Assembly: GCA_964435035.1 (NCBI GenBank)
Contig: CAYSXR010000001.1
Location: 144,192 to 208,191 of the forward strand
Source: an uncultured Gammaproteobacteria bacterium
GTDB lineage: Bacteria; Patescibacteriota; Patescibacteriia; Magasanikbacterales; UBA922
Direction: 5' to 3'
DNA length: 64,000 bases
A program made the position numbers and the translations under genes. How positions within the stretch are numbered: the first letter of the stretch is position 1; the number at the start of each line of letters is the position of its first letter. The notes under the pieces are model-generated. The model was given only the letters and a program-made list of their open reading frames with translations. It ran no database searches and was not told the DNA's origin. This document shows, piece after piece, positions 11,329 through 61,719 of the stretch.

Positions 11329-11895
11329 ATGAGGAGGGGAGCAGCAATCTTTATTTTAATTGGATTGTTTTTTGTGTTTGTAATTAGTGGAGTGGTGTAT
11401 TTTTTGAGTCTCGAAAATACGCGCACTTCTGAAACAACGGACGTCCCAGTTGTCTCGGGAGTTCTTCCACAAGGTGTGCGTATTATCGAAAAAGAAGGTA
11501 ATAGAATATTGAAGGACGAACGAGCGGGTTATGAGATGGAGTTACCAGAAGAAATTAGTGCCGTTGTTGGTAAAGATAATACAGTCTTATTTTATTCCGA
11601 TAGCAGTATTCCCGACTATGGGACAGTACTTGGAGGTATCGGTATTTTTGATAGGGATAATTTATCTCTCGAAGATTGGGTTGCGCGGTTGCACAAAGAA
11701 ACGTTTTTGGTCTTCTTTGAAGAAAGAGAAAGAATTGACAAGGGTGATTTAGAAATTATAAAAATTAAGATGGATGGACCAGGTGAACCTTATGACTATT
11801 TTTTTCTGCATAAGGATAAAATTATTAACGTATCGTGGGTCACAGGGGATTACCTGGATACCTATATTCAAAATATAGTTTTTATGAACTTATAA
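11329..11895 (+). CDS. Hypothetical membrane-anchored protein
   Basis: 188 aa with an N-terminal TM helix and an SD-like gaggagggg just upstream. Confidence 0.6.
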   Translation: MRRGAAIFILIGLFFVFVISGVVYFLSLENTRTSETTDVPVVSGVLPQGVRIIEKEGNRILKDERAGYEMELPEEISAVVGKDNTVLFYSDSSIPDYGTVLGGIGIFDRDNLSLEDWVARLHKETFLVFFEERERIDKGDLEIIKIKMDGPGEPYDYFFLHKDKIINVSWVTGDYLDTYIQNIVFMNL

Positions 11896-11899
11896 TTAT

Positions 11900-14800
11900 A
11901 TGAATAAAAGGAGGGGGAAGAAAACACAATTCTTAAGTTATTTTTTATTCTGCTTATTCATTTCTATTATTTTTGGAAAAAATGCGTTCGCTAGTCAGGA
12001 GATACAAAGGTTTCTTATCTTACCTTTTTCTAGTGAAATAAGGTTATTGCAGGGCTGGGAATATACTATGCTAGTTCGAGGTAATAAGATACATGGAGGG
12101 ATTGATTATGATTGTAATTTAGGAGATCCGATTTATGCATCATATGATGGTGAAGCAATGACATCGGTTCAAGTTGAAAAAAAGTCTGGAGCTGGTTATG
12201 GAAATTTTGTTTTTATAAAACACCATAATGGATATGCAACATTGTATGGACACTTAAACAAAGTTGCAGAACATATTACTTTGTATCCTTCTGGGCTACG
12301 AAGTAATACTAATTATGTTGAATGGACGTCAGTTCTGAAAGGAGATTATATTGGTGACTGCGGGACTTCTGGAACCGACAATGTGCATCTGCATTTTGAA
12401 GTGACTACGGGAAAATATTCAACAGGTAGAATAGATAGCTATGATCTATACAAGACCAAACAATTTTATCCACCGAATGCGTCATACACTACCATGGGGG
12501 AAAAACATTTGTGGATGAGCGATCCTCCCCAATATCTAGAAGCAAAACATGTCGAGAATCAAAAAGGTAGGGCAACTGAAGAAAATAAAAATATTTGGGA
12601 GACAATAAAAGATTGGTTTGCGTCAAAAGAATCTAAGTCAGTTGGTGTGGTGTTAGGTGGAGAAAAAGAGTTACCAGAGAAAAAGGAAGAATTAGGGTTA
12701 TCTTTTGTTGATAGAAAAATTTTTGTATCGTCCACCGCCACCACTGAGGATATCTCAGTGGTGGTACAAGCAAAAAATACTGGTTCAAAAATTTGGAAAA
12801 AACAGGAAATCTCGCTTAATGTAATTGGAGGACGTGAAGCAAATGCGCCATTTAGGCATGCCTCATGGATTACCGATCTGCGTCCTGCGCTTCTCGATAA
12901 TACAGATATAAAACCAGGAGAAACAGGTTCGTTTAGTTTTAGTATTAAAAGTTTGCCTGAAGGTCTACATACAATAAAATTAATGGTAGTAGAAGTGGGG
13001 ACATGGAAACAAATAGGGAGTGAATATGTTGAGATTGAAATATTGGTTGCTAAACCAGTTAAAGAGCTGACTGAAGAGAGCAGAGAAGAGGGAATAGCTG
13101 AAGGAGTTATTCATGGAATAAAAGAATTTGCTGAAACAGTGGTGGACAAGGTGGTCGATGTAATCAAATCAGTACCAAAAATTTTTAGAGGTGGAGGAGG
13201 GAGTGGTGGTTCTCGACAATCGAATGAGAGTGTTGATACTATCACCGAAAGTCCTACTGAAGAAGTGATCCTGATAGAAGAAGATAATATAGTAGATGAA
13301 GATAGTGAAATCGAAAGTGTTTCTGACATGAGTAGAGAAATCATATTCAATGAAATTGCATGGTCCGGGTCAAGTTCGGTCTGCACTGATCGAGAATGGA
13401 TTGAAATATATAATGCATCGAGTACAGTCCTCTCACTTGAAAATTGGAAATTAGATATTTCTACTGCAGAGTCTACAAGTAGTATTGCGTTAGTCGGATC
13501 AATTGAAGCATATGGATATTATCTCATCTCACACGCAAATATATTTTCTTCGTTTATTACAACAGATGCGATATTACCTCAGCAGATACAAATTCCAGAT
13601 AGTGGTGCGAGATTGGTATTAAAAAATCAAGATGGTGAAAACATTGATGAGATAGACCAAACCAATGGGTGGCTTGGTGGAGATATGGGGCAATTCCCAC
13701 ATACGCTTGAGCGTGTTGCATCAAGTACATGGGGCACTAGTAACTCAGTGCGATATGGGGCACAATCAGGCAATTGTGGACAAATCACTGGTAGTCCTCG
13801 AATGGAAAATGATGGATATGCATTTATTTCAGATGCCACGTTGGGCTTTTATTCAAGGAATGTAGAAGGAAATATAATACTTACTCAAGAGGAAAATCCG
13901 TATTTATTTTCTAGTGTTACGATACCAGAAGATGAGGTGGTCGAAATTGGTTCAGGTGTGGTTTTTGTAGGCACTAATCCAGAGTCAAGAATGGTGGTGC
14001 AAGGTGAATTGGTCTTGAAGGGGGAAGAAAATGATCCAGTTGTAGTTACTTCGAGACACGATCATGAAGTTGTGACAACAAGTGCGTTATTTTCTAGTAT
14101 CTTTACCGGAGACTTCGCACAAGCAGGAGATTGGCAAAATATTGAAGTTTTGGAAAGTGGAAAATTAAAGATTGATCACAGTGTGTTGAAATATGGGGGA
14201 AATAAATTTGGTGTGAGTGCATTCTGTCAGGGTTGTAGTCGTTCACAAGTAATTACTAATATTGGTGGTGAGGTTGTATTACAAAATGTTGAAATTGGAA
14301 ATGGATTTGAATTAGGAAGTGGCGCGGGTCCAGATGTACTAGTCTATTCAAACAATGGAACTCTTAACTTACAAAATGTACAACTCCATAATGGAAAACG
14401 GGCGCTGCATAGTGAGGGAAATACAGAAGTTTTAGCGAGGTCTGTAGATGTGCATAATTTTGATTTGTCAGATAAGGTAATATATGTTGAACAGAAAATG
14501 CCTGCTGTATGGGAAGATGTAGATTTTTTAGAAAATACACCCTCGTATGCGTATAGTCCTGCATTAGTTGTAACTAGTTCGTACACACTTTCACCTGATC
14601 ATGCGTTTGAGTTTGGTATGGTATCCATAGAATCAGGTGGAGAGCTTGTGCTCGACGGGGGAAATTTGTATGCGCGTGAAATTACCGTACAAGGAAACTT
14701 GCGTTCTGGTGAAAATGAACACATGAGTGAAATAGCAGGTGGTGTATCACCTTCATCAACATTTTCTCGAATATTATTTTCAGTTGGATCATTGGGTAAT

Positions 14801-34941: not shown

Positions 34942-36417
34942 TTAGAGTTTTCCCAAATTTAATTCTTCAGTGATACGAATTTGTTCGACAAAATCTGGCA
35001 TATGAGATACGAGGATGATTGTTCCTTCATATTCATTGATAGCTTCTGCAATCACCGGGATGTGTCTGAAATTGATATGGTTGGTAGGCTCATCAAGAAT
35101 GAGAAGTCCAGGTTTTTGCAATACAAATCGGGCATAGCAGAGTAATCCTTTTTGTCCTTCTGAGAGTGACCCGACCGTATTTTTCATAATGTCAGAAGTC
35201 AGAAGAAATTGTGCACCTGTCGCATATATTTCCTGATTATCAGGCACGTCCATCATCTGAGCAAGAGAATCATACACCGTAGCTTCAAAATCAAGCCCAG
35301 AGAAGTCTTGTCGGTAATAACCAATCTTTATTCCCGGAGCAATAGTCGCGTGATCAGCAGGTTCAAGTGCAAGTTCTTTCAAAAGCGTGCTTTTCCCAAC
35401 GCCATTAGGTCCGACAATTTGTAGTCTGTTTCCTTTCCACAGTTTAATGTCCACTTTTTTACTGATGCGTTTATGATTAATAATAGCGCCCACATTTGAA
35501 ATAGTCACAACCACTTCAGACCATGATTGCGCAGGAATTGTAAATGGGCGGATGGTTTTGTCATCACGTTTTACCTCAACCATGTTATCTTCATCCTCTT
35601 CAACTTGGTCTTTGAGTTTGCTTGCGAGTTTTCGCATCTTACCTCCTTTGTGTGCAAAGAAGTTTACTTTATCTTTTTTGTCTTGGATATTTTTTCGGAG
35701 TTGTGCATTTTTTCGTTCTTCACGTTCAATTTGCGCTTTAATTTCCTCGATCACATCGAAATAGTTTCCCACATATTGCTCAACTTTTTTGGTATGAAAG
35801 TCTACGTTCAAAACTCCATCAGTAAATGAATTCAAAAATGCTGCATCATGGGAAATAACAATAACCGTTCCTTCATACATCACGAGGAAGGCAGTGAGAT
35901 GTGCAATACCATCAGCATCAAGATTATTGGTAGGTTCATCAAGTAGAAGAATGTCAGGTTTCTGTATGAGTGCATATGCCAAGAGCAGGCGCGCGTGTTG
36001 TCCACCTGAGAGTTCTTTTACTTTCTTTTCAAGTGGAATGCTGAGGTCAACTACTGAAAGTACATCAGTAACCAGTTTTTCAAGGTTATACAGATGTTCA
36101 GAAAATGCAGTCGCAAAATATTCAAGAATAGTTAAATCAAAAAATTCTTTGGGCATGACCTGGAGCCCGATCGCAATAGTTGCGTTGTCTGTAATATGTA
36201 TATTACCTGAATTTGGTTTGAGGATGTCAGGTTTGGTAGAGCCAGAAGCACCGAGAATAAGCTTGAATATCGTACTTTTTCCTACACCATTTTGTCCCAT
36301 GATGGTAATTTTTGCATTTTCACGAACCGAAAAAGAAGCCCCATCAAGGATTTGTTTATCATCGGTATAGGCGAATGATACGTTATCAAAACGCACAATA
36401 ACATTGCCGTGGCTCAT
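34942..36417 (-). CDS. ABC-F family ATPase (two fused ABC domains, no TM)
   Basis: Two Walker A motifs (GQNGVGKST, GPNGVGKST), two signature motifs (LSGGQ, LSEGQ), two Walker B motifs (LLLDEPTN, LILDEPTN) and a charged linker. Confidence 0.9.
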   Translation of the reverse strand: MSHGNVIVRFDNVSFAYTDDKQILDGASFSVRENAKITIMGQNGVGKSTIFKLILGASGSTKPDILKPNSGNIHITDNATIAIGLQVMPKEFFDLTILEYFATAFSEHLYNLEKLVTDVLSVVDLSIPLEKKVKELSGGQHARLLLAYALIQKPDILLLDEPTNNLDADGIAHLTAFLVMYEGTVIVISHDAAFLNSFTDGVLNVDFHTKKVEQYVGNYFDVIEEIKAQIEREERKNAQLRKNIQDKKDKVNFFAHKGGKMRKLASKLKDQVEEDEDNMVEVKRDDKTIRPFTIPAQSWSEVVVTISNVGAIINHKRISKKVDIKLWKGNRLQIVGPNGVGKSTLLKELALEPADHATIAPGIKIGYYRQDFSGLDFEATVYDSLAQMMDVPDNQEIYATGAQFLLTSDIMKNTVGSLSEGQKGLLCYARFVLQKPGLLILDEPTNHINFRHIPVIAEAINEYEGTIILVSHMPDFVEQIRITEELNLGKL

Positions 36418-36607: not shown

Positions 36608-36727
36608 TTATTTCTGTGCGGTTGCAGCAGCCTTACGTACGCGCTTCAACTTTTTTTTGTCGCGTGTAACTTTGTCCACTTTCCATTGTGCCTTCATTTT
36701 ATTTCTCATTTTTTTGCGCATTCCCAT
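36608..36727 (-). CDS. 39-aa highly basic protein (possible small ribosomal-type protein; absent from ORF track)
   Basis: Manual translation gives MGMRKKMRNKMKAQWKVDKVTRDKKKLKRVRKAAATAQK*. It has its own TTGACA-17-TATTAT promoter and lies next to the infC-rpmI-rplT operon and tRNA-Asp. Confidence 0.5.
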   Translation of the reverse strand: MGMRKKMRNKMKAQWKVDKVTRDKKKLKRVRKAAATAQK

Positions 36728-36771: not shown

Positions 36772-36800
36772 ATAATACGTTTTTTTTACACGTTTGTCAA
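36772..36800 (-). promoter_or_regulatory. Sigma70-type promoter for the 39-aa ORF
   Basis: On the minus strand: ttgaca, a 17-nt spacer (aacgtgtaaaaaaaacg), then tattat. Confidence 0.6.
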
Positions 36801-36819: not shown

Positions 36820-36917
36820 AAAACAAAAGACCCTTAGTGTGTCCGGCGCGGCAAGGGAGCGAAGGAGGGGGCGCTCCCGCCATCGCCAAACACACTAAGA
36901 GTCTTTAAGTGTTAGTA
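36820..36917 (-). ncRNA. Candidate small RNA: GC-rich long hairpin with C-rich apical loop
   Basis: Minus-strand TTGACA (36948-36953) with an 18-nt spacer to TACTAT (36924-36929). Then a hairpin of about 67-80 nt (10-bp cuuagugugu/acacacuaag base, gggagcg/cgcuccc top, loop CCCCCUCCUU), followed by UCUUUUGUUUU. Confidence 0.4.
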
Positions 36918-37093
36918 TACAAAATAGTACCATCCCAGAATAAGACGTGTCAAGGGTAATTAAGCGAAAAAAATTCTTATTTTTAGGGGATTGTAAACTG
37001 TATACTAATTAGATAGTAAAAAATTTTTAAGTATTAGTTTATGTAATAATTTCACCGGGAATATTACGTATGAAGTGTTGCTGTGTATAAAAT

Positions 37094-37114
37094 AATCCCC
37101 CAGAATGGGGGATT
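37094..37114 (-). terminator. Rho-independent terminator of infC-rpmI-rplT
   Basis: aatccccc-agaat-gggggatt hairpin, followed on the minus strand by auuuuau. Confidence 0.7.
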
Positions 37115-37151
37115 AGATACTGTTGAGGAATTTTGTACTGCTTGTAAGTGT

Positions 37152-38647: not shown

Positions 38648-38747
38648 ACTTCCTCCTTAAAAAAGTTGTATTGGCAGTGCCACGAGGGCGCGCTGTGCTT
38701 AGTAATGTTGCTGCCACGTAAAGTCGCTACGCTCCTACGTGGCACTC

Positions 38748-38774
38748 AAAGGCGCTCTGAGAATCGCGCCTTTT
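38748..38774. terminator. Bidirectional hairpin terminator 3' of tmRNA
   Basis: aaaggcgc-tctgagaatc-gcgcctttt. Confidence 0.65.
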
Positions 38775-38776
38775 CG

Positions 38777-39173
38777 TGGAGATGCCGGGAGTCGAACCCG
38801 GGTCTAGACGGGTTACCCCGATACTCTACATGTGTATCGATGTTTGGTGTTTCGCATACGAATATGAAACATCGAAAAATATCGCATGCTATCGCATGAA
38901 TGGTTTCAACTAACTTCCATACGAACAAAGTTAGTCTACGCTCGAACTAGGGTTGGCACCGTGGATCCACCATCGAGTATCGTGGGTACGATGGTCGTAG
39001 TGATTTAGGCTACAACAGAAGCAAAGCTAGGCATACTGAAAGCTTTCGCTACAGTGTTTTTAGCTCGCTCGAACAAGTTTGCACTTGTGGAATTGCCTAT
39101 TTGTTACAGAGACAGGCACTCTGACATGCATATACAAGATAACAGAATCCATCTATCGAAGCCTGTCATCCCC
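38777..39173 (-). ncRNA. ssrA: tmRNA (SsrA)
   Basis: 5' GGGGAUGACAGGCUUCGAUAG pairs with 3' ..GGGUUCGACUCCCGGCAUCUCCA, giving an acceptor stem with a G3:U pair and a T-arm. An internal tag frame ends ..PSFASVVA-UAA (stop at 39005-39007). It is adjacent to smpB. Confidence 0.9.
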
Positions 39174-46297: not shown

Positions 46298-46416
46298 AAG
46301 GTGTTTGGGCTAGAAATGTGCTAAAAAGTATGAGAGTAGTCAAAAGGGGCTACACCCTTTACTTTTTGTCAAAATTTGCATAAAGTACGTTAATGCTTAT
46401 TGTGGCAGGGGTATAC

Positions 46417-46445
46417 TTGACAAAAAGGTATAAATATGCTATAGT
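46417..46445 (+). promoter_or_regulatory. Consensus sigma70-type promoter (TTGACA-17-TATAGT) driving the GC-rich island
   Basis: acTTGACAaaaaggtataaatatgcTATAGTac is near-identical in layout to the promoter at 63780-63808. Confidence 0.7.
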
Positions 46446-46655
46446 ACTGCGTTATTTCAAAAGCCCTACATAGGTCTTCGAAATAGCAATCCAGGGGCCC
46501 CATCAGAGAGGATATGTGTCCCTTCTGATGGAGTCCCTGGTCTAGGAGCTCCCACTGTGGCCCGTTCGGGCAATAGTGAGAGCCTTAGGCTCATTACAAT
46601 CGAAGAAGCTAGAACACGTGCCCCTATGAAAGGGGTGTAAACGAGGAGATCAGAA
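46446..46655 (+). promoter_or_regulatory. Structured 5' leader of about 200 nt
   Basis: Nested helices ccaggg[ccatcaga...tctgatgg]ccctgg, gcccg-tt-cgggc, gagcc-tta-ggctc, and cccct-atgaa-agggg just before SD gaggag. No known riboswitch recognised. Confidence 0.45.
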
Positions 46656-48104
46656 ATGATTGACCGCAACAAGAAGAGCAACAAGAAGAGCACGCCCGTG
46701 AAGGGCGGCGCTGCGGCGAACCCGCAGGCGATGGCAACCGTGGCGTCTCACAAGGACGACACGGCTCAGATCGATGTGGTGGTCGAGACCAATCCCGAGG
46801 CCGACAAGGTCGAGGGTGAGGTCAAGGCCGATGAAGAGGCGAAGGTCGAAGAGACCGTCGCCACCGCCCCGACCGAGAACGTCGAGAAGAGCGAGGAGCC
46901 GGCCGTTGTGGTCGACCCCGAGCCCGAGCTCGAGCAGAAGCGGAACTTCCGTAAGGAAGACCTCCGCCTCCGGTACAACGACAACCCGCAGGTGCTGCTC
47001 ACCTCCGCGGATCTCAGCGAAGAGGACAAGGTCCTCATCGGCGAGATCGCGAGCGAGCAGAACCAGGTCGTCCGCGACTATGCCGCGCTGGCACAGGAGC
47101 TGACCGACGAGAAGGACCAGCTCGAGCAGAAGCTCGACGCGACCAACTCCAAGCTGGGGAACGTCACCAACCTCATCGCGACCACGGTCAAGGAGACCGT
47201 GGGACAGGTGGACAAGGAGACGTCGGCCTTGATCGAAGGTCTGAAGATCGAGATCGAGGGCGTCATCGGCAAGGGTAACGGCGTGAAGAACGCCGTCACG
47301 AAGATCGGGGACGATGTCAACAAGGACATCGGCTCGCTCAAGGGTCAGGTCAACGCCAACGCCAAGTCGGTCAACGACAAGGTCGATGGGATGGCCGCGA
47401 TGCTCGGGAAGATCGACGAGAAGATCTCCGAGATCAAGTCCCCGCCGCCCCCGCAGCAGCCGCCGGCTCAGTCCAGCACCACCCCGTCCTCCGGATCCTC
47501 CGGGTGGCCGTGGGTCGTGGCCGTGGGCATCTTGCTCGCGGCCGTGATCGCGGTCTTCCTCCTGAACAAGGATGTGAAGATCGAGGTCCAGGTGCAGCAG
47601 CCGGCGGTGAACACCGTGAAGGGTGTGGTGCCGCCGGTGGTGGACAACGCTCTCGGGGTGACCTCGCAGCAGGTGACCCCGGGTGGACCGGGGAATCCGA
47701 TCGTGCCCACGGTGGTCGGTGCCACGTCCGAGGATCCCTGCAAGGGGAAGGTCGGTGGGGAGCTCGGGTCGTGTGTCCTTCAGCTGGAGAAGTTCCGGCC
47801 GAAGGGGTTCACTGATGCGCACTGGAACACGGTCGTCGAGACCTTCCAGAACGTCATCATGGTCCCCTTGAGCGTTCCGTTCAAGGACATCAAGCACCAC
47901 GACAAGGCCATCGAGCACAACATGAGGAAAGACGCGGCACTGCAGGCGTGCGTCGACGCATACGTCTTGAAGACGGATGATGTCGAGTCGAACGTCCGGT
48001 GTCAGCGGGCGGTCGATTGTCTGTTCACTTCGGTGGACGAGGCAGCACAGTGCTACATGACGCATACGCGCTCGATCACGGGCGTTTTGGTCACTGTCAA
48101 CTGA
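46656..48104 (+). CDS. Bitopic membrane protein: acidic coiled-coil N-domain, Pro-rich linker, TM, Cys-containing C-domain (island gene a)
   Basis: 482 aa with an SD upstream. TM helix WPWVVAVGILLAAVIAVFLL. Seven Cys residues, all C-terminal to the TM. Extreme GC3 codon usage (AAG/GAG/GAC/AAC/ATC). Confidence 0.75.
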   Translation: MIDRNKKSNKKSTPVKGGAAANPQAMATVASHKDDTAQIDVVVETNPEADKVEGEVKADEEAKVEETVATAPTENVEKSEEPAVVVDPEPELEQKRNFRKEDLRLRYNDNPQVLLTSADLSEEDKVLIGEIASEQNQVVRDYAALAQELTDEKDQLEQKLDATNSKLGNVTNLIATTVKETVGQVDKETSALIEGLKIEIEGVIGKGNGVKNAVTKIGDDVNKDIGSLKGQVNANAKSVNDKVDGMAAMLGKIDEKISEIKSPPPPQQPPAQSSTTPSSGSSGWPWVVAVGILLAAVIAVFLLNKDVKIEVQVQQPAVNTVKGVVPPVVDNALGVTSQQVTPGGPGNPIVPTVVGATSEDPCKGKVGGELGSCVLQLEKFRPKGFTDAHWNTVVETFQNVIMVPLSVPFKDIKHHDKAIEHNMRKDAALQACVDAYVLKTDDVESNVRCQRAVDCLFTSVDEAAQCYMTHTRSITGVLVTVN

Positions 48105-48119
48105 ACCTCAACCCAACTA

Positions 48120-48145
48120 GTCCGACCTCCCTCGGGAGGTCGGAC
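48120..48145 (+). other. Intercistronic GC hairpin
   Basis: gtccgacctcc-ctcg-ggaggtcggac forms a perfect 11-bp stem between island genes a and b. No T-run, so probably not a full terminator. Confidence 0.5.
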
Positions 48146-48159
48146 ACAGGAGAACAGAC

Positions 48160-49095
48160 ATGAAGCAGCTCGTCGCGAAGATCGTGGTTTATTACATCGT
48201 ACTTCTCTCGGCGTCGGCCTTCGGCTCGACGCCGAACCCCGGTGACCAGTTCGACCTGATCCAGGGAGGGATCCCGGCGAAGGTCGAGGTCACGCAGCAG
48301 GAGATCAAGGCGATGGACACGTCCATCGACCAGCTCCTGAAGCGCACCGGCGGTCTCCTCAAGAAGGACGCCGAGCTCAAGAAGGAGCTCGAGGACCTCA
48401 AGAAGGAGCTCGAGGACCTCAAGAGCAAGCTCGACAAGGTGGTGAAGCCGGGTGATCTCACGGTCATCCGAGTGGATCTGGGAAGGTTGTGGACGCAAGT
48501 CAACAACCATGGACAGCGCCTCACCGAGCTCGAGCAGGACGTCGAAGATCTGAAGAGGAGCGACAAGGCTCAGGACGATCGACTCGGTGATCACGACCAG
48601 AAAATCGAGGACATCAACAAGCGCCTCGATCGAGGTCTCGGAGTGAAGTTCGGCATCGGAGCCTATGGCGTCTACGGGACGCAAGGCTCGATCAACGGTG
48701 GAGCTTCGGCTCGGCTGAGGATCCCGCTGTCCGGTGGATGGCAAGCGATCGTCAATGGCGGAGTCGGCGGCAACCATCAGGGAGCTTCAGGATTCGCCGA
48801 TCTGTCGGTCGGCTACCAGTTCGCGAGCGGCATCTACCTGGGGGCAACCCTCGGTATCGACGCCAACTGCGACGGTATGTGCACCAGGCTCCTCACGGAG
48901 ATCTGGGGCGCAGGTCCCGACATCGGCTACCTGTCCGACGATGGACTCTTCATCCGGGCTCGTGTGCTCTTCGGGAGCGAGTGGATCAAGGGTCCGACGA
49001 TGCAGATCGAGTACCCGGATCGTACGGTCTTCAAGACCGACGAGTCCCGGGAGTTCGGCATCTCGGCTTTGATCCAGCTCGGTCACGAGTTCTAG
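48160..49095 (+). CDS. Signal-peptide protein with coiled coil and C-terminal OMP-like beta-barrel ending in Phe (island gene b)
   Basis: 311 aa with signal peptide ..LLSASAFG and heptads ELKKELEDLKKELEDLKSKLD. The last 150 aa or so have alternating Gly/aromatic beta-strand patterns and end ..ALIQLGHEF. Confidence 0.7.
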   Translation: MKQLVAKIVVYYIVLLSASAFGSTPNPGDQFDLIQGGIPAKVEVTQQEIKAMDTSIDQLLKRTGGLLKKDAELKKELEDLKKELEDLKSKLDKVVKPGDLTVIRVDLGRLWTQVNNHGQRLTELEQDVEDLKRSDKAQDDRLGDHDQKIEDINKRLDRGLGVKFGIGAYGVYGTQGSINGGASARLRIPLSGGWQAIVNGGVGGNHQGASGFADLSVGYQFASGIYLGATLGIDANCDGMCTRLLTEIWGAGPDIGYLSDDGLFIRARVLFGSEWIKGPTMQIEYPDRTVFKTDESREFGISALIQLGHEF

Positions 49096-49346
49096 ACTTC
49101 AAGATTCGGGGAGTGTCTCTACTCCCCGGACCCCTCACCTCGCCGACTTCAAGGCAGAAGGGATAAGACAATGAGACAAACACTCGAGTAAACGGCGTGG
49201 TCGCACAACGCGGCCCCCAATACTGGAGCATGGGCGATATTTCGAAAGAAATGTCGCCCCTCGCACAGCGTATATCAGTCTCTGGTATGCGATGACGAGA
49301 AAAGCATCTCACGTAAATCCCGACTAAATCGGGACACGTGACAAGC

Positions 49347-49375
49347 TTGACAAACGAGAGTATTTATGCTATACT
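49347..49375 (+). promoter_or_regulatory. Consensus sigma70-type promoter (TTGACA-17-TATACT)
   Basis: gcTTGACAaacgagagtatttatgcTATACTaag, located inside an AT-rich spacer of the GC-rich island. Confidence 0.7.
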
Positions 49376-49498
49376 AAGCTGTTACAAAATAAAGAAGTGC
49401 CATGGGAAATCTCGATGTAGTCGGGGTATCTATGGTAGATCGTCATGCACTGCATGGTGGTCCATTGAACCTTACAATATATGCGAAATGTATAAAAA

Positions 49499-49543
49499 GC
49501 TTGAAAGGCTAGAAAGGCCGGAAAGGCTTGAAATGCTAGAGAA
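49499..49543 (+). repeat. Five tandem 9-nt repeats (GCYNGAAAG) in a 5' leader
   Basis: gcttgaaag gctagaaag gccggaaag gcttgaaat gctagagaa. Confidence 0.75.
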
Positions 49544-49551
49544 CGTATCTT

Positions 49552-49677
49552 GTGACGTGAAGAAAGAAATTTTCAATAAGAATTTTTTCTTAGCGTCACG
49601 AGGAGTTCTCAGGCGTGAAAACTTCTCGTGTGGTACACGAGGAAGCAACAACAAAACCCCGATTGAATCGGGGAGGA
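49552..49677 (+). promoter_or_regulatory. Leader with mutually exclusive hairpins and a hairpin abutting the SD
   Basis: gtgacg...cgtcac hairpin. cttctcgtg (49622-30) can pair with cacgaggag (49597-605) or with cacgaggaag (49636-45). ccccga-ttgaa-tcgggg overlaps the 5' edge of SD ggaggag. Confidence 0.45.
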
Positions 49678-49685
49678 GAAGAGTC

Positions 49686-51452
49686 ATGAAGAAGTTCAAC
49701 AAGTTCCTGTTCGTCGTCATGTTCATCTCGTTCGTCGCGGCCATCACGGGCTGCGCCGATCACGGTGGCGAGACGGTCGTCGTCAAGGGTGACGATGGGG
49801 AGAGCGTCAAGCTCTGCCCCGAGGAGCATCAGTGCTCCTCGGCCGAGTTCTGCAACTCGCAGGGTCTCTGCGTCATCCCCGGTGCCAACGGCACCAACGG
49901 CGAGGACTTCGAGCGATGCTCGAATAGTCGTGGTGACTGTGTCGGTAACGAGCTCTGCAACTCGCAGGGCGTGTGTGTGCTCGAAGGTCCGCAAGGGCCG
50001 GCGGGGGAGTCCTGTACCGTGTCGACGAAGGTCGACGGGTGCTTCTTCCTCTACTGTGGCGCAAGCGTCACGGAGATCTGCGACGGCGAGGACGGTGTGT
50101 CCTGCACGGTCGCAGGGCAGCCGGACGGCAGCGCTCAGGTCGAGTGCTCGGACGGTTCGTTCGCGACCATCCTCCCCGGACAAGACGGCGAGGACGGTCT
50201 CAACGGCACGAGCTGCACGGCCTCGACGGTCAAAGGTTGCCTCGTGGTGACCTGCGGAACGCAGTCGACGGAGATCTGCCCGGAGGATCTTCCGGATCCC
50301 GAGCCGGTCGACGGCTGCCAGAAGGACTCGGACTGCACGGACGGCAGCGAGTGCACCAACGACATCTGCGATCTCAACACCGGCACCTGCCGGTACGTGT
50401 CGCAGGTGTGTGATGACGGCGTCGCCTGCACCAACGACTGGTGTGACACGAACGGCTACTGCCGTTCGACCGCGGACAATGATCAGTGCAGCGGCGGCGA
50501 CTTCTGCTTGCCGACCGGTTACTGGTTTTGGTCCTCGGCGGTGGGTTCTGAGGAACTCGCTGACGGAGGCTGTTACGAGTGCCGCTGGGACTCTGATTGT
50601 GCCGACGGCGACGCGTGTACGGTCGACACCTGCGACGCGGGTGTTTGCAAGAAGGAAACGCGCGAGTGCCCCACGGGTGCGACGTGCGTCGAGTACTCGA
50701 GCAACTACTACGACGACTCGGAGTGGAACTACGTGTGCCAGGACAATCCGTCGTGCAGCAACAACAGCCAGTGCGACGACGGCAAGTACTGGACGACGGA
50801 TGCGTGCGTGGCCGGGGAGTGTGTCTACACCCAGGTGTCGTGCAACGACAACAACGCATGCACCGTGGACACGGTGAACTCGAGTGGGCAGTGCACCTAC
50901 GCCCAGATCTCGTGCGACGATGGCAAATCCGCCACGGTCGACACGTGCTCTGCGAATACGGGGTGCGTACACACGCCGGTGAACACCGGCTGCGAGCACG
51001 ATCTCGATTGCGATGACGTCGACGGTACGACCACGGACCTGTGCGAGGACAACGGGAGCTGTACACATACTCCCAATGCCCAGTGCAAGTCCCTGACGGT
51101 CAAGGTCGGCTGGGCCATCCTGTGGTCGCGCGGTCCCGAGATCGGAACCACCAATGTCCCGATGGGCAACTGGCGTAGCTGCGAGGAAGACGAGGCGGAG
51201 AACTGCCGTACCATGTCGTGGTGCGGTGACGACATCGTGGAGTTCAATGTTCAGCAGATGCCGAACGTGGCAGGTGCCGACTGGCTCGTGAAGAACGAGA
51301 AAGGCGACAGCCCTTGCACGTCGAACGCAGATGCGACCTTGAACTACACGCCCGCTGATCTCTTCGTCGGGGCGACGCCGGTGCAGAAGGGCTGTTCGCT
51401 CTTCTGCGACCCGAACGGGTACACCAACTACACCTGCGATTCCGCGGAGTAG
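49686..51452 (+). CDS. Cys-rich repeat lipoprotein (island gene c)
   Basis: Start MKKFNKFLFVVMFISFVAAITGC (lipobox) follows SD ggggaggag. Repeats of the form C.(D/N)D.C....G.C, resembling Dictyostelium-CTDC-type units. The ORF-track start at 49338 was rejected. Confidence 0.75.
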   Translation: MKKFNKFLFVVMFISFVAAITGCADHGGETVVVKGDDGESVKLCPEEHQCSSAEFCNSQGLCVIPGANGTNGEDFERCSNSRGDCVGNELCNSQGVCVLEGPQGPAGESCTVSTKVDGCFFLYCGASVTEICDGEDGVSCTVAGQPDGSAQVECSDGSFATILPGQDGEDGLNGTSCTASTVKGCLVVTCGTQSTEICPEDLPDPEPVDGCQKDSDCTDGSECTNDICDLNTGTCRYVSQVCDDGVACTNDWCDTNGYCRSTADNDQCSGGDFCLPTGYWFWSSAVGSEELADGGCYECRWDSDCADGDACTVDTCDAGVCKKETRECPTGATCVEYSSNYYDDSEWNYVCQDNPSCSNNSQCDDGKYWTTDACVAGECVYTQVSCNDNNACTVDTVNSSGQCTYAQISCDDGKSATVDTCSANTGCVHTPVNTGCEHDLDCDDVDGTTTDLCEDNGSCTHTPNAQCKSLTVKVGWAILWSRGPEIGTTNVPMGNWRSCEEDEAENCRTMSWCGDDIVEFNVQQMPNVAGADWLVKNEKGDSPCTSNADATLNYTPADLFVGATPVQKGCSLFCDPNGYTNYTCDSAE

Positions 51453-51669
51453 TCGTACCCACAAACATTTCGTGTAAAAGCTTTGAGTAGCCTAGCTACC
51501 AGACTCAAAGTTCAATCAACGTAGCGGGAGGGGGCACAAGCGTTCATCTGAATTGCGCAAGCGATTCAGTGACGAGTGCCTCCCTCCCATTCCAACATAT
51601 CTTTATCAAAATTCAGAACTCAGATTACAGTGAGAGACTAGTGAGTATTGGTAGAGAGATGTGGGGATG

Positions 51670-51727
51670 GAAAATTCAAAACTTAAAACTTAAAACTCAA
51701 AATTTAGATTTAAGTTGTGAGTTATTA
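51670..51727. repeat. A/T-word intergenic repeat (family C, copy 2) inside the GC-rich island
   Basis: gaaaattcaaaacttaaaacttaaaactcaaaatttagatttaagttgtgag. Confidence 0.55.
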
Positions 51728-51795
51728 CAAACCCTTTCCATCATTATGATGGTTTCAATTCCCCTCAACCGCGACGACAGAAATGTCACGCGCGG

Positions 51796-51821
51796 AAAAA
51801 ACCCGCGCATGCGGGTTTTTT
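51796..51821. terminator. Strong bidirectional terminator
   Basis: aaaaaacccgc-gcat-gcgggtttttt. Confidence 0.85.
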
Positions 51822-51913
51822 AAATTCCATTACCTCGGGTATATCGTATAATGATGGTATATCTATGGTAGAGGAATTCTACACGCCAGTTCACAAAAAC
51901 CAGGAGGGGACAC

Positions 51914-52651
51914 ATGTTGGGTATGACGTTTCGTTTGTTTGTTTTCTGTCTCACCGTGTTCACCGCCGCATGCATCGAGGATATGCGGCGGGAGGAAGCG
52001 TCCATGGTCCAGGTCGATACGTCGACTGGCATCATGGATATGGTGGAGGAAGTCAAAGACGTACCAGATTCACGGGTCCGTGATCGGTATGATATCGAAT
52101 TTCCTCCTACAGCCGACGAGTGTGTCGTCGATGAATTCATCGCAGAGGGAAGCCCTTGCGATGATGGCGATGCATGCACGATCGATGTCTGTATCCAGGG
52201 CATGTGTCGTAATCGAGCTATCGACTGCGACGACGGAAATCCCTGGACGGATGACGAGTGCATCGTCGACACTGGGGCGTGCTCCAGTGTACATCGGGTG
52301 ACTCATTTCACCGTTCGCGCGGAGCGTCCGGGAAAGGTGAAGCTTTGGTATGGGAATCACACCGAGCCAGAGACCTATCCCATGAACTCGAGCTTCGAGA
52401 TCCAGAAGATGGATCTCTGCGTCGAGAACCGTGTGCTCACGCTCGCGGTAGAGGACGAAGAGTTCCCGGGAACCTACTGGGGTTGTAACCCTGGCCTTCC
52501 TTCGAAGAGGGAACTCGCAGTCGAGATCGACGGGGTGGACACGCCCGGTTATTTCGCTGCGGATCTCGGATGGGAGGTGCCCAACTCTGCGTGTGGTGGG
52601 AAGGGAGAGGGTGACCTCTACTTCTTGCGGGCGCAACTCGCATGTGACTGA
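51914..52651 (+). CDS. Small Cys-rich lipoprotein sharing the C-terminal domain of gene e (island gene d)
   Basis: SD aggagggg upstream. Signal peptide ..LTVFTAAC. Two Cys-rich units (CDDGDACTIDVC, CDDGNPWTDDEC). The C-domain motif CNPGLPSKRELAVEIDGV matches CNPGFPSKSTLTVMVNGV in gene e. Confidence 0.7.
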   Translation: MLGMTFRLFVFCLTVFTAACIEDMRREEASMVQVDTSTGIMDMVEEVKDVPDSRVRDRYDIEFPPTADECVVDEFIAEGSPCDDGDACTIDVCIQGMCRNRAIDCDDGNPWTDDECIVDTGACSSVHRVTHFTVRAERPGKVKLWYGNHTEPETYPMNSSFEIQKMDLCVENRVLTLAVEDEEFPGTYWGCNPGLPSKRELAVEIDGVDTPGYFAADLGWEVPNSACGGKGEGDLYFLRAQLACD

Positions 52652-52739
52652 TGACCGGGTGTCTCGCGAAGGATAGGATGGCGTATACGCTATGCTGTCC
52701 ACCTTCGCGAGCACCACTAATTCAACAAATAGAATTATA

Positions 52740-52768
52740 TTGACAAAATACTCTTTTCCTGATATGTT
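52740..52768 (+). promoter_or_regulatory. Putative promoter (TTGACA-17-TATGTT)
   Basis: The -35 is consensus and the -10 is weak. A leader of about 220 nt follows, with the long hairpin ctagagg..ccctctag (52881-52946). Confidence 0.45.
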
Positions 52769-52998
52769 GATACGATTGTATCTACGCATATCGGATATCT
52801 AGAGAGGTATCTGGTATGCGCCACTGGAGAATCATTCTCAAGTGTGTATGTTCATTATAATCACATAAGTTTTTTGTTCAGCTAGAGGATGGGTGCAGAT
52901 AGAGGTATATGTAACATATCTTGTATCGATAGCCACCCTCTAGCTGAGACACAGTGTCACTGCTGGAGTTCAACGGCCTCACAACGGAGGAAGGCCAA

Positions 52999-55041
52999 AT
53001 GCGTCTGAAGAACAACAACAACCGGATGTTCATCATCACGGTTGCCCTCGCCATGGGGTTCATGGCGGCGTGCACGGAACACGGCGGCGACGAGCCGATC
53101 GTGGTCGTGATGAAGGCGGACCTCGACCTCGACGAGGTCCCCAACAACGTCGACAACTGCCCGGGGGACAACAACCCCGATCAGTTGGACACCGACGGCG
53201 ACGGCATGGGCGATGCGTGCGACAACGACGTCGACGGCGACGGGGTCTTGAACCCCGCCGACAACTGCCCCGACAACTTCAACCCCGACCAGGCGAACCT
53301 CGACAAGGTCCTGGCCGACAGCGGCAACGTCACCGTGGTCGCGGATCTCTTCGGAGACGTCTGCGACAACGACGACGACGGCGACGTGGTCTGCGACCCC
53401 TGGCTCGGCGTGGACGGGTGGGAAGAATTCCATCCCGGTCAGGGCGAGACGTGTCAGGGCGAGGACAACTGTCCCGACGTCGCCAACGCCGACCAGGCGA
53501 ACCTCGACAAGGACTTCGAGGGCGACGTCTGCGACAACGACGTCGACGGCGACGGCGACCTCAACGGCGCAGACAACTGCCCGCTCGTGACCAACGCCGA
53601 CCAGGCAAACCTGGATCGGGACGACTGGGGCGACGCCTGCGACACCGACGACGACAACGACAGCTTCTGCGACGAAGCTGCCCCCGTCTCGATGCCGCGA
53701 AATGCGCCCGCGATGCCCCTCTGCGAGGGCGAGGACAACTGCCCCCGCTTCAAGAACGCGGGACAGGAAGACATGGACGAGGACGGCATGGGCGACGTCT
53801 GCGACGACGACTGCGACGGGGACCTCTACCCCGAAGCGTCGCCCTGGGATTTCCCCAACCTGTCGTGCTTCGTGTATTGCAATCCGGAAGGTCCGGGAAC
53901 CGAGTGCGACGACGCGAACACGTGCACCACGGACACCTGCAACGGGCAGGGCGTTTGCGAGTACGTGTTCACGCAGTCCGAGACGTGCGAATGCGTCTTG
54001 GACTCCGACTGCGAGCCGACCGACGCCTGCGTCACCGAGATGGCGTGCGTGGAAAACACGTGCGTCGAGACCGGATGGAAGGTCCTGACCGACGGGGACA
54101 ACTGCACCATCGACACCTGTGATCCCTCGACCGGCGTGGTCACCCACGTCGAGAAGGACTGTGGTGGGGACCTCTGCGGAGGAGGCCTCTCGTGTAACCG
54201 CATGACCGGAGAGTGCAGCACACCCGTGCCGCAAATTCCGATCAACGACAGCAACGCCTGCACCACCGACGCGTGCGATCCCGAGACCGGCGTGGTCACC
54301 CACGTCGCGATCGTCTGCGACGATGGGAACGCATGCAACGGCACCGAGACGTGCAACCCGGCTTCCGGGTGCGTCGCGGGTACGCCGCTCACGTGCGATG
54401 ACGGAAGCGTCTGCACGATCGACAGTTGTTCGGCAAACACCTGCCAACACGTGGCGGTGACGACGAACGACAACAACATGTGCACCACCGACACCTGCGA
54501 TCCCGAGATGGGGGTGCAGCACACGGCGGTGGTGTGCAACGACGTGAACTCCAACACCACCGACACCTGCGATCCGGCGACGGGTTGCGTGCACACGCCG
54601 ACGGGGAACTGCACGGTCAACGCGGATTGCAACGACAGCAATCCCCTGACCTACGACACCTGCGTCGCGCTCGTCTGCCAACATGTGGAAGGTGTCCGCG
54701 TGCAGGTCTCGTCGACCGACACGTCGGAGACCTGGCAGGTCAATTTCTACTACAACGGTACGACGATCTCCGGCAACCTGCCCTTCGACGGGACCTTGCC
54801 GAAGACGCTCGCATGCAGCTGGGGCGCCGACATCGCCGTCAACCGTCCGAGCACGAACTTGTTCTTGGACTGCAACCCGGGGTTCCCCTCGAAGTCCACC
54901 CTGACCGTCATGGTCAATGGTGTCACGAAGGCGAACGACTTCCAGGTTCGTTCGCAGGCATGCGACGGCGCTCCGCCGGGCAACCTGTGGCTCTCCGACG
55001 AGAGCGGTGACAACGACCTGGGATGCCCCGCGGCACCCTAG
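52999..55041 (+). CDS. Lipoprotein with thrombospondin-type-3-like Ca-binding repeats and Cys-rich repeats (island gene e)
   Basis: SD ggaggaagg, then MRLKNNNNRMFIITVALAMGFMAAC. Repeated DNCPxxxNxDQxDxDxDGxGDxCDxDxDGD units, then repeated CxxDxCDPxTGxxH units. The mature N-terminus CTEHGGDE resembles CADHGGE of gene c. Confidence 0.75.
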   Translation: MRLKNNNNRMFIITVALAMGFMAACTEHGGDEPIVVVMKADLDLDEVPNNVDNCPGDNNPDQLDTDGDGMGDACDNDVDGDGVLNPADNCPDNFNPDQANLDKVLADSGNVTVVADLFGDVCDNDDDGDVVCDPWLGVDGWEEFHPGQGETCQGEDNCPDVANADQANLDKDFEGDVCDNDVDGDGDLNGADNCPLVTNADQANLDRDDWGDACDTDDDNDSFCDEAAPVSMPRNAPAMPLCEGEDNCPRFKNAGQEDMDEDGMGDVCDDDCDGDLYPEASPWDFPNLSCFVYCNPEGPGTECDDANTCTTDTCNGQGVCEYVFTQSETCECVLDSDCEPTDACVTEMACVENTCVETGWKVLTDGDNCTIDTCDPSTGVVTHVEKDCGGDLCGGGLSCNRMTGECSTPVPQIPINDSNACTTDACDPETGVVTHVAIVCDDGNACNGTETCNPASGCVAGTPLTCDDGSVCTIDSCSANTCQHVAVTTNDNNMCTTDTCDPEMGVQHTAVVCNDVNSNTTDTCDPATGCVHTPTGNCTVNADCNDSNPLTYDTCVALVCQHVEGVRVQVSSTDTSETWQVNFYYNGTTISGNLPFDGTLPKTLACSWGADIAVNRPSTNLFLDCNPGFPSKSTLTVMVNGVTKANDFQVRSQACDGAPPGNLWLSDESGDNDLGCPAAP

Positions 55042-55226
55042 AACTTCTCCTGCGACGACTGCAGGAGCATCTCGAAGTGAACGTGTGATTCGCTTCTGTA
55101 GGTGAATGTTCGAAGACAATCACACAAACCGGGGGAAGTGCGCTCGCTACTACAGCGACCGCTTCCTCCCCTCTACTCTGAATTCAAGTACGATCTTGAG
55201 AATAGAGTAGAAGGGCACGCTAGAAT

Positions 55227-55248
55227 AACCGCACTATGCGGTTTTTTT
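55227..55248 (+). terminator. Rho-independent terminator at right edge of island
   Basis: aaccgca-cta-tgcggtt followed by ttttt. Confidence 0.8.
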
Positions 55249-55253
55249 GTTAT

Positions 55254-55355
55254 GTCATTCCGAGCGAGTGCACCCGAGCCGAGGAATCTTTCCTGTATAA
55301 GACCATGTAAGAAAGATTCCTCGACTCCCTCGGAGACTCGGTCGCTCGGAATGAC
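55254..55355. repeat. Palindromic MITE-like element (family D, solo copy)
   Basis: Perfect 14-bp termini gtcattccgagcga / tcgctcggaatgac and inner 13-bp inverted repeat cgaggaatctttc / gaaagattcctcg. Its arms match the arms of the copies at 61107 and 61583. Confidence 0.75.
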
Positions 55356-61106: not shown

Positions 61107-61244
61107 GTCATCCCGAGGGAGGAGTGCATCCGACGATTCGAGGGATCTTTCCTGCATAAGGCTGATTAGGAAAAATGTATTTAAAGCTTAGTAAGGACTT
61201 GGTAGGAAAGATTCCTCGACTCGGGTGCACTCGCTCGGAATGAC
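61107..61244. repeat. Palindromic MITE-like element (family D, copy 2)
   Basis: gtcatcccgaggga...tcgctcggaatgac. The right arm matches the reverse complement of the left arm of 55254-55355 with one mismatch. Flanks extend the inverted repeat (taatgt/acatta). Confidence 0.75.
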
Positions 61245-61287
61245 ACATTAAGTAATTGTATTGGGTGGTAAAAAGTAAGGGGGTAGT

Positions 61288-61566
61288 ATGAAAACATACT
61301 ATGTGTATATTATGTCGAGCATTAATCAAACACTCTATGTCGGTATAACCAATAATTTATTCCGTAGAGTTTTTGAACATAGGATGAAACTCAATGAAGG
61401 TTTTACAGAAAAATATCAGATATATAAATTAGTATATGCTGAATACTATACAAATGTGCAGGAGGCAATACGTCGTGAAAAACAAATCAAAAAGTGGCGT
61501 CGAGAGAAGAAAATCAAATTGATTGAAAAAGATAATCCCGATTGGGTGGATCTCGCAAGGAATTAA
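61288..61566 (+). CDS. GIY-YIG nuclease family protein (small, stand-alone)
   Basis: 92 aa: YYVYIMSS..QTLYVGITNNLFRRVFEHRMK...E...REKQIKKW. Confidence 0.8.
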   Translation: MKTYYVYIMSSINQTLYVGITNNLFRRVFEHRMKLNEGFTEKYQIYKLVYAEYYTNVQEAIRREKQIKKWRREKKIKLIEKDNPDWVDLARN

Positions 61567-61582
61567 TGGTGTGATTGGTATT

Positions 61583-61719
61583 GTCATTCCGAGCGACCGA
61601 GTCTTCGAGGGAGTCGAGGAATCTTTCCTGTATAGTATTCTGTAAAAAAATGTAACTATAGTTTGGTAAATACTTTGCAGGAAAGATTTCTCGACTCGGG
61701 TGCACTCACTCGAAATGAC
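61583..61719. repeat. Palindromic MITE-like element (family D, copy 3)
   Basis: gtcattccgagcgaccgagtcttcgagggagtcgaggaatctttcctg ... caggaaagatttctcgactcgggtgcactcactcgaaatgac. It has the same two arm types as the 55254 copy, in inverted order. Confidence 0.75.

Follow-up and report, generated by a model that had tools for sequence, protein, structure and literature searches.

A predicted small RNA with an invariant anti-Shine-Dalgarno loop downstream of rplT in Candidatus Magasanikbacteria

C-rich unpaired motifs presented by stable hairpins, such as those of RsaE/RoxS and RNAIII, pair with G-rich Shine-Dalgarno (SD) regions. RsaA also pairs with the SD (PMC3961350). The alpha-r14 small RNAs (sRNAs) carry an ultraconserved CCUCCUCCC anti-SD motif in the loops of hairpins whose stems are highly different in sequence, and NfeR1 of Sinorhizobium meliloti occludes translation-initiation regions (PMC10746234), while PmaR of Agrobacterium tumefaciens combines a long stem with a C-rich loop (PMC6234868). 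Here, we describe a predicted hairpin RNA comparable to these systems, which is encoded on the minus strand of a 64,000-nt stretch of contig CAYSXR010000001.1 (assembly GCA_964435035.1; hereafter the window), immediately downstream of rplT in a member of Candidatus Magasanikbacteria, a lineage of the Candidate Phyla Radiation (CPR). We are highly confident that the element is a real sRNA gene; the predicted RNA is about 100 nt long and specific to Candidatus Magasanikbacteria.

The likeness to alpha-r14 and NfeR1 lies in an anti-SD motif placed in an unpaired loop (CCUCCUCCC there, CCCCUCCUU here) on stems that are free to vary. The combination typical of alpha-r14, i.e. an ultraconserved anti-SD loop with variable stems, is found here too, as CCCTCCTT is invariant in 41 copies and the stems change in a compensatory manner. 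Hfq independence and action in trans (both predicted here) and an RpoD-type promoter are further common traits, and the two-hairpin versions present in two relatives (L032 and L213) recall the multi-hairpin layout. In contrast, alpha-r14 and NfeR1 possess three hairpins, each with CCUCCUCCC, and the RNA described here one (two in L032 and L213), no similarity in sequence or by covariance model (CM) was found (no Rfam match at E <= 10), the host belongs to the CPR and not to the Alphaproteobacteria, and the neighbours to which the gene is linked are rplT and a gene for a 39-aa basic protein, termed orf39. Moreover, SD sequences are hardly in use in the present host, most mRNAs of which are thus out of reach for the motif.

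With RsaE/RoxS, RsaA and RNAIII of Firmicutes, the RNA shares a C-rich unpaired motif, an intrinsic terminator at the 3' end and a length of about 100 nt, but it displays the exact anti-SD heptamer instead of UCCC or CCCC, consists of a single hairpin, matches no Rfam family and differs in lineage and genomic context. Like PmaR, it is spoon-like, i.e. one long stable stem carries a terminal single-stranded C-rich loop as functional seed (predicted here) (PMC6234868). The loop of PmaR, however, is larger and explicitly not anti-SD, and mostly activates targets away from the ribosome-binding site (RBS); the two RNAs are not related in sequence.

Promoter, hairpin and terminator in the window

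The unit and the two elements that bound it are located as follows:

36924..36953, minus strand: sigma-70-type promoter of the sRNA with extended -10, i.e. TTGACA, an 18-nt spacer and TGg-TACTAT
36826..36906, minus strand: body of the sRNA, an 81-nt hairpin defined by folding and covariation
36862..36871, minus strand: conserved 10-nt apical loop CCCCCUCCUU, the proposed seed
36820..36828, minus strand: U-tract UUUUGUUUU, which by its sequence completes an intrinsic terminator
37093..37115, minus strand: intrinsic terminator of rplT itself, a 10-bp stem followed by a T-run, with a terminator-like Rfam match
36772..36800, minus strand: promoter of the downstream unit of orf39 and tRNA-Asp (TTGACA-17-TATTAT, from the sequence), the 3' bound of the sRNA unit

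An AT-rich spacer separates the rplT terminator from the sRNA promoter. The -35 element TTGACA occupies 36953-36948, the spacer ends in TGG and the -10 element TACTAT lies at 36929-36924, with a predicted transcription start site around 36917 and a 17-nt leader ahead of the hairpin. The latter has a GC content of 0.60, compared with 0.24-0.31 on either side. Folding of the 111-nt stretch 36925-36815 gave a minimum free energy of -59.1 kcal/mol, vs -27.2 +/- 3.2 kcal/mol in 200 dinucleotide shuffles, none of which was as stable (z = -9.9). From its base upwards, the hairpin comprises a variable lower stem, a conserved upper-basal helix (GUGUUYGGYG / CRCCGRACAC), a 4-bp helix enclosed between a 1-nt and a 2-nt bulge, and an apical helix of 6-7 bp; the stem amounts to about 33 bp in all, the two bulges being its sole irregularities. 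The loop heptamer CCUCCUU is the exact core of the 16S anti-SD tail.

The initial annotation had read this region as a self-contained transcription unit free of open reading frames (ORFs), composed of a minus-strand TTGACA-18-TACTAT promoter, a GC-rich hairpin with a 10-nt loop and a subsequent U-tract, and followed by a gene with its own promoter. Each of these parts was found as described, and the self-contained nature of the unit is supported by the conserved promoter and U-tract, the covarying stems and the invariant loop core presented below. Within the reach of sequence analysis, these data also favour its proposal of an sRNA with an anti-SD-like loop, for which RBS occlusion would be the putative mode of action. 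The absence of ORFs has to be qualified, since mechanical ORFs of 32-49 aa do overlap the hairpin; yet the compensatory changes and indels among 42 homologues follow the pattern of an RNA helix and not that of a coding frame. The same annotation had considered that the hairpin might be only the distal terminator of rplT, which is not so in this window: rplT owns a terminator, and the sRNA hairpin is therefore not needed to end the infC-rpmI-rplT transcript in this genome. A repeat or mobile palindrome was also rejected, as the CM finds one copy only in the 64-kb window and the other palindromes of the window are unrelated.

The 4227 models of Rfam 15, including those of the signal recognition particle (SRP) RNA, 6S, RsaE, ar14 and L20_leader, returned only tmRNA and two tRNAs at gathering score in the 64-kb window and nothing at the hairpin, and only tmRNA and tRNA-Asp in 20 homologous loci. 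At E <= 10 with permissive filters, there was no minus-strand match over 36826-36906, and the sole overlap at the hairpin was RF00043 on the plus strand (E = 9). Thus, no covariance model identifies the hairpin as one of the known RNAs (SRP, 6S, RsaE) against which the initial annotation had proposed to scan it, and full-text literature searches brought up neither such an RNA nor any other described sRNA for this lineage. To judge from these comparisons, the sRNA is a new family, for which Rfam 15 holds no model.

A highly diverged housekeeping RNA, e.g. a minimal SRP (4.5S) or a 6S-like RNA, would be in keeping with the size and the single long hairpin, which resemble 4.5S RNA, as well as with the strong promoter, the single copy and the conservation throughout the lineage; that the 64-kb window contains no SRP RNA is uninformative for a genome of about 1 Mb. 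Domain IV of 4.5S RNA is characterized by a GNRA tetraloop and conserved symmetric and asymmetric internal loops. The hairpin, however, has a 10-nt loop instead of the tetraloop, shows neither domain IV loops nor a 6S-type central bubble, and has no match to RF00169 or RF01854, in line with the negative Rfam results for its strand and for the homologous loci. In addition, close CPR relatives are devoid of it, which would be unexpected for an essential universal RNA, and we consider this explanation exceedingly improbable. An L20 autoregulatory leader is not indicated either, as RF00558 does not match and the element is located downstream of rplT, not upstream of infC/rpmI. Finally, a split rRNA fragment, an idea prompted by the small 23S rRNA of Magasanikbacteria (PMC9297842), was rejected as unsupported because the stems evolve far too fast; the sole resemblance to 23S rRNA was one 9-mer, at chance level.

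Conservation, covariation and architecture among relatives

Eighty loci encoding L20 relatives were taken from one-genome-per-species contigs and searched for the hairpin by nhmmer and a motif scan, followed by the CM; 41 copies were aligned in a first alignment (A1) and 42 in a second, CM-based one (A4). The hairpin was present downstream of rplT in 39 of the 80 CPR loci, i.e. in every Candidatus Magasanikbacteria rplT locus examined, with one CM copy in each of the 39 (72-109 bits), vs none in the 41 loci labelled Falkow-, Uhr-, Buchanan-, Kuenen- and Komeilibacteria, Absconditabacterales or other Patescibacteria. Including further copies reached via orf39 and via the DNA pattern, the unit is conserved in about 45 loci overall. 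An unbiased pattern scan of metagenomes yielded at least three true copies among the matches listed, one in the usual context, one (L091) away from rplT and one on a 1-kb contig; in L091, the sRNA unit with its promoter still stands next to an inverted orf39 and tRNA-Asp. A presence in viruses was rejected, as the three matches of the IMG/VR pattern scan were all located in GC-rich phage contigs, did not fit the CM and were regarded as spurious.

No copy deviates in the 8-nt loop core CCCUCCUU, although the L20 proteins of this clade share as little as about 57 % identity. While the adjoining stems vary freely, CCCTCCTT is identical in all copies of A1, as are a GTGTT in the 5' arm and a RACA in the 3' arm; the loop of A4 reads CCCCCUCCUU in 29 copies and UCCCCUCCUU in nine. 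RNAalifold assigned 28 stem pairs, 23 of which show double compensatory changes (6/6 in the apical and 17/22 in the basal helix), so that the conservation and covariation to be looked for in related genomes according to the initial annotation are indeed there. Standard pairs make up 96.9 % of the cells in A4, vs 34-50 % when the partner is slid by one to three columns, and the covariation score is 0.605 compared with about 0.14 in the slid controls, with 0/500 shuffles reaching the observed values. G-U cells are in excess over A-C cells (141 vs 14) and the sense strand scores about twice as high as the antisense strand; therefore, the constraint acts on an RNA of the rplT strand. According to these patterns, selection acts on the geometry of the helix and on the sequence of a short segment of it, but most strongly on the apical loop of 8-10 nt, CCCCUCCUU.

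The architecture of the unit was compared in the same set. In 31 of 41 copies, a distance of 9-29 nt separates the stem from the end of a promoter of the form TTGACA-17/18-TGnTAnnAT, at least four U occur within 8 nt after the stem in 36 of 42 copies (on top of three paired U), and the TTGACA of the downstream orf39 promoter follows 5-30 nt past the U-tract in most loci. Given this conservation of its own promoter and its own terminator, the sRNA is predicted to be an independent transcription unit in most genomes. Seven to nine relatives carry the hairpin directly after the rplT stop codon and without a promoter of its own; judging by this arrangement, the sRNA must be derived there from the 3' untranslated region and terminator, as the 3' end of the rplT operon transcript. 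In three loci (L033, L039 and L047), the gap between hairpin and orf39 measures 26-69 nt and contains no promoter. Two genomes harbour tandem duplications of the hairpin (L032, 3492-3689; L213, 3701-3894), the first copy of which lacks a good U-tract and would give a two-hairpin RNA with two anti-SD loops.

Such arrangements have to be weighed with regard to a role in cis only, i.e. as an elaborate terminator or 3'-end stabilizer of infC-rpmI-rplT, or as an attenuator before orf39 and tRNA-Asp. The location immediately after rplT in about 45 of 46 loci, the promoterless copies behind the rplT stop codon, the promoter-free gap of 26-69 nt before orf39 and the overall shape all speak for it, since Rho-independent terminators equally have a GC-rich stem followed by a U-run, with a 5' A-tract pairing with part of it. 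A terminator, however, needs neither an invariant 8-nt loop nor a sequence-specific helix segment, and the stem of about 33 bp, the 10-nt loop with its invariant core and a dedicated consensus promoter set the element apart from one. A plain rplT terminator is further contradicted by rplT having its own in the window, with the consensus promoter of the hairpin in between (a promoter of this kind precedes 31 of 41 copies), and by the sequence constraint on both loop and helix segment. Moreover, attenuation would be bypassed by the orf39 promoter, usually located downstream of the U-tract, and L091 carries unit and promoter away from rplT. We therefore regard an exclusively cis-acting element as unlikely.

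As a side observation, the rplT terminator of L051 (3360-3400), a GC-rich relative without the sRNA, reads ACACCCCCUCCUCUC / GAGAGGAGGGGGUGU in its stem, not in its loop, which may be a remnant of the sRNA or a coincidence.

Shine-Dalgarno use and candidate targets of the loop

An SD-like 4-mer was found upstream of about two of the 36 native genes of the window, i.e. around 94 % of the native genes are without SD. Across all sRNA-bearing loci, 6 % of the ORFs have an SD vs 19 % in an internal control region, and only 8 of 373 ORFs can pair with the loop over 6 nt or more in the vicinity of their start. The statement of the initial annotation that GGAGG-type SDs precede several genes is thus true for a GC-rich island and for the GIY-YIG genes, but not for the native genes. 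Because the host is SD-poor, the sRNA cannot be a global RBS occluder, and its candidate regulon is small (the GIY-YIG genes and a few others). A correlation of SD loss with the presence of the sRNA was rejected, as sister CPR lineages without the sRNA are equally SD-poor. The 16S 3' end reads GATCACCTCCTTTCT in neighbouring CPR lineages (L044, L057, L059 and L078), the end of the Magasanikbacteria themselves not being among them, and Falkowbacteria-type loci of the same rplT search have a normal 16S tail, GAUCACCUCCUUUCU, despite using no SD. According to a published survey, the anti-SD was lost in part of the Parcubacteria (PMC9297842).

The GC-rich island (46300-55300) has 55-67 % GC vs about 40 %, four of its six genes have a classical SD, and none of its proteins matched a Pfam family above threshold; it may have been horizontally acquired, or the contig may be chimeric.

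The explanation that we favour, with a confidence that is about evenly balanced, is that of a trans-acting anti-SD sRNA, the loop of which would pair with GGAGG-type motifs in start regions and thereby block initiation. A strong extended -10 promoter of its own would drive transcription of the RNA of about 100 nt, which in a minority of genomes would instead form the 3' end of the rplT transcript; the RNA would end at its own hairpin and U-tract terminator and would as a whole be one long hairpin. Its loop would then be the seed and base-pair with purine-rich stretches of the GGAGG type on or beside start codons, in a mode probably similar to that of the anti-SD loops of alpha-r14/NfeR1 and the C-rich loops of RsaE and RNAIII. 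As native genes initiate without SD, matching motifs would be rare and the regulon small, with the small mobile GIY-YIG nuclease genes as the clearest candidate class, along with two adjacent envelope genes (starting at 11329 and 11900). The candidate sites in the window, where 49 start regions were covered by a duplex scan, are:

11908..11917, plus strand: AAGGAGGGGG, codons 3-6 of gene 11900 for a 1112-aa secreted M23-type protein, complementary to the loop at 10/10 positions
11332..11339, plus strand: AGGAGGGG, codons 2-4 of gene 11329 for a 188-aa membrane protein, second best duplex (-18.2 kcal/mol)
38652..38658, minus strand: AAGGAGG, 4 nt upstream of the AUG of the GIY-YIG gene 38647-38375
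61277..61283, plus strand: AAGGGGG, 4 nt ahead of the start codon (AUG) of the other GIY-YIG gene, 61288-61566

The duplex at gene 11900 (-20.8 kcal/mol) was the best of the 49 start regions, and only about 0.03 complements of 10/10 would be expected in the window by calculation. The two envelope genes open with ATG AGG AGG GG.. (11329-11342) and ATG AAT AAA AGG AGG GGG (11900-11920), i.e. with loop-complementary runs of 8 and 10 nt, respectively, just after the start codon. An island gene starting at 51914 ranked third (-17.3 kcal/mol), and the first seven ranks also included the two small GIY-YIG genes, with -12.0 kcal/mol for 61288 and -11.2 kcal/mol for 38647.

Within the sRNA-bearing loci, a GGAGG-type loop complement lies no more than 20 nt from the AUG in 9 of 12 GIY-YIG genes vs 9 of the 334 remaining ORFs (Fisher p = 6e-11). 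Several GIY-YIG subfamilies have the motif, at positions -11 to +12, i.e. 3-4 nt upstream of the AUG in some and within the first codons in others (ATGtGGAGGGta, ATGGAGGaaaa), and this spread fits an occlusion of the start region better than an SD function. New Magasanik-type loci showed it in two of four GIY-YIG genes, while it was found in none of three new homologues from Peribacterales, Peregrinibacteria and another lineage, whose loci gave no CM match. Taken together, 11 of 16 GIY-YIG genes in Magasanik-type contexts carry the motif vs none of five homologues from lineages without the sRNA (p = 0.012). On these counts the GIY-YIG genes are a candidate regulon and not an established result.

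In the window, the GIY-YIG cassette (38375 to about 38760, minus strand), in which a structured leader precedes the gene 38647-38375, forms an insertion of about 345 nt between tmRNA and infC compared with the near-identical loci L001, L003 and L004; its absence from these relatives indicates that it is mobile. Three related palindromic elements (GAGTCGAGGAATCTTTCCT...) were also observed, at 55276-55327, 61134-61223 and 61611-61697; two of them flank the second GIY-YIG gene and one lies on the right-hand border of the GC-rich island. Possibly, they represent the ends of cassettes.

Several points weigh against an anti-SD sRNA acting by base-pairing. Strong duplexes are not significantly enriched at the start regions of the window (3/49 vs 22/877), and relatives of gene 11900 amount to none in the metagenome scan and one partial homologue in the protein database. 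The GIY-YIG association emerged post hoc, its counts are uncorrected for phylogeny and come from genes that are not independent of each other in this respect, and it was replicated in no more than two out of four new genes. Alternatively, the GGAGG motifs may be nothing but genuine SDs, recognized by the anti-SD tail of the ribosome itself. Furthermore, the helix segment GUGUU/RACAC is invariant beyond the need for base-pairing, which hints at a protein partner or a processing site, and base-pairing alone explains neither why the unit is so strictly tied to rplT (about 45 of 46 loci) nor why it co-occurs with orf39.

Gene neighbourhood, orf39 and possible roles

The genes surrounding the sRNA in the window, all on the minus strand, are:

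38774-39173, minus strand: tmRNA gene (106 bits), immediately ahead of the infC operon
38346-37798, minus strand: infC
37742-37524, minus strand: rpmI
37496-37152, minus strand: rplT
36608..36727, minus strand: orf39, encoding a 39-aa K/R-rich protein, co-occurring with the sRNA
36566-36493, minus strand: tRNA-Asp
36417-34942, minus strand: ABC-F gene

The order smpB, tmRNA, infC, rpmI, rplT is kept in all Magasanikbacteria loci examined, and the conserved block consists of smpB, tmRNA, an optional GIY-YIG gene, infC, rpmI, rplT, sRNA, orf39 and tRNA-Asp, with the sRNA right behind rplT in about 45 of 46 loci. The tmRNA-infC-rpmI-rplT-orf39 part of it was searched for conserved complements of the loop, with a negative result. 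The product of orf39, MGMRKKMRNKMKAQWKVDKVTRDKKKLKRVRKAAATAQK (MGMRKK...TRDKKKLKR), belongs to a family of 36-43 aa with 98 clusters of hypothetical proteins and no Pfam domain; the gene has no SD and usually has its own promoter (TTGACA-17-GTATyATAT). Searches of Pfam, NCBIfam and PDB (profile vs PDB, E <= 10) gave no match, and a relation to bS22 / DUF1713 was rejected (hhalign probability 0.4 %), as the orf39 profile has no PDB match whereas a bS22 query finds bS22 chains. Three orf39 proteins looked up independently of rplT led to nine places with three distinct arrangements, in which the sRNA stands right after rplT in all but L212 (a 1.5-kb fragment) and is in some cases separated from orf39 by one or two genes.

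Further downstream, the ABC-F gene contains an in-frame AAAGGAGGUAAGAUG (35634-35648, minus strand; K-G-G-K-M), which resembles an SD followed by a start codon. It is kept as AARGGRGGWAARAUG in nine of nine loci with that gene, synonymous changes retaining the potential to pair with CCUCCUU, and might represent either an internal start or an additional site for the sRNA or the anti-SD.

The invariant GUGUU/RACAC segment, the linkage to rplT and the co-occurrence with orf39 keep an explanation by protein binding alive. According to this, the anti-SD mimic would be a protein decoy or the RNA part of a small ribonucleoprotein (RNP), in which the loop imitates the 16S tail and binds a protein that recognizes this tail; orf39 is the obvious candidate partner and the invariant helix segment may take part. 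The logic would be that of CsrB/CsrA reversed, or that of a ribosomal-protein operator: CsrB/RsmZ decoys and rRNA-mimicking operators also titrate a partner by loop mimicry, and here, too, the gene lies next to translation genes. Unlike CsrB, in which many GGA loops mimic the SD, a single loop mimics the anti-SD here, and unlike the ribosomal-protein operators, the element has no match to L20_leader and is located downstream of rplT.

In favour of a decoy or RNP, orf39 occurs in 36 of 39 sRNA loci vs none of 41 others, usually 45-130 nt downstream of the sRNA, and remains adjacent even after inversions (L008 and L091). In Buchananbacteria-type loci, rplT is directly followed by tRNA-Asp, and sRNA and orf39 therefore look like one innovation that arose at this site. 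Both genes have near-consensus promoters within a block of translation genes (tmRNA, infC, rpmI, rplT and tRNA-Asp), and the normal 16S tail of the Falkowbacteria-type loci, kept though no SD is used, would agree with such a partner. The co-occurrence, however, may reflect only shared ancestry in one clade, and one or two inserted genes separate sRNA and orf39 in at least six lineages, so that co-expression is not required. In addition, the searches linked orf39 to none of the RNA-binding or ribosomal proteins, and most CPR have lost Era, the factor known to bind CCUCC (PMC10582724), which weakened the idea of an Era decoy in particular. Overall, a decoy or RNP role appears doubtful.

It is tempting to speculate that the anti-SD RNA is abundant and silences selfish or foreign genes at the level of translation, perhaps as an RNP with orf39, and leaves host mRNAs untouched, although we consider this distinctly unlikely. 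It would then recognize the GGAGG of mobile GIY-YIG cassettes and of acquired SD-dependent genes such as those of the GC-rich island, a step no less conjectural. In such a role, one antitoxin-like RNA encoded on the chromosome might even control many nuclease genes at scattered sites, in analogy to xenogeneic silencing but at the level of mRNA, which is equally improbable.

To our knowledge, regulatory RNAs are almost unknown in the CPR. Our data define an sRNA family that is supported by covariation, delimited by promoter and terminator, and characterized by an invariant loop corresponding to the anti-SD core, in an unusual setting, i.e. an SD-independent CPR lineage in which the sRNA gene neighbours that of a tiny basic protein and may control mobile GIY-YIG genes. 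They also bring to light a lineage-specific basic protein of 39 aa, encoded next to the sRNA within a block of translation genes. Considering the favoured explanation of a trans-acting anti-SD sRNA, the host lineage has essentially given up SD-led initiation, by which an ordinary-looking anti-SD sRNA would become a selective probe. The few mRNAs with GGAGG near the start, i.e. those of the GIY-YIG genes, the two envelope genes and the foreign island, would thus form a small and testable candidate regulon, and, if the link to the GIY-YIG genes is true, the family would show how a minimal genome restrains selfish nucleases.

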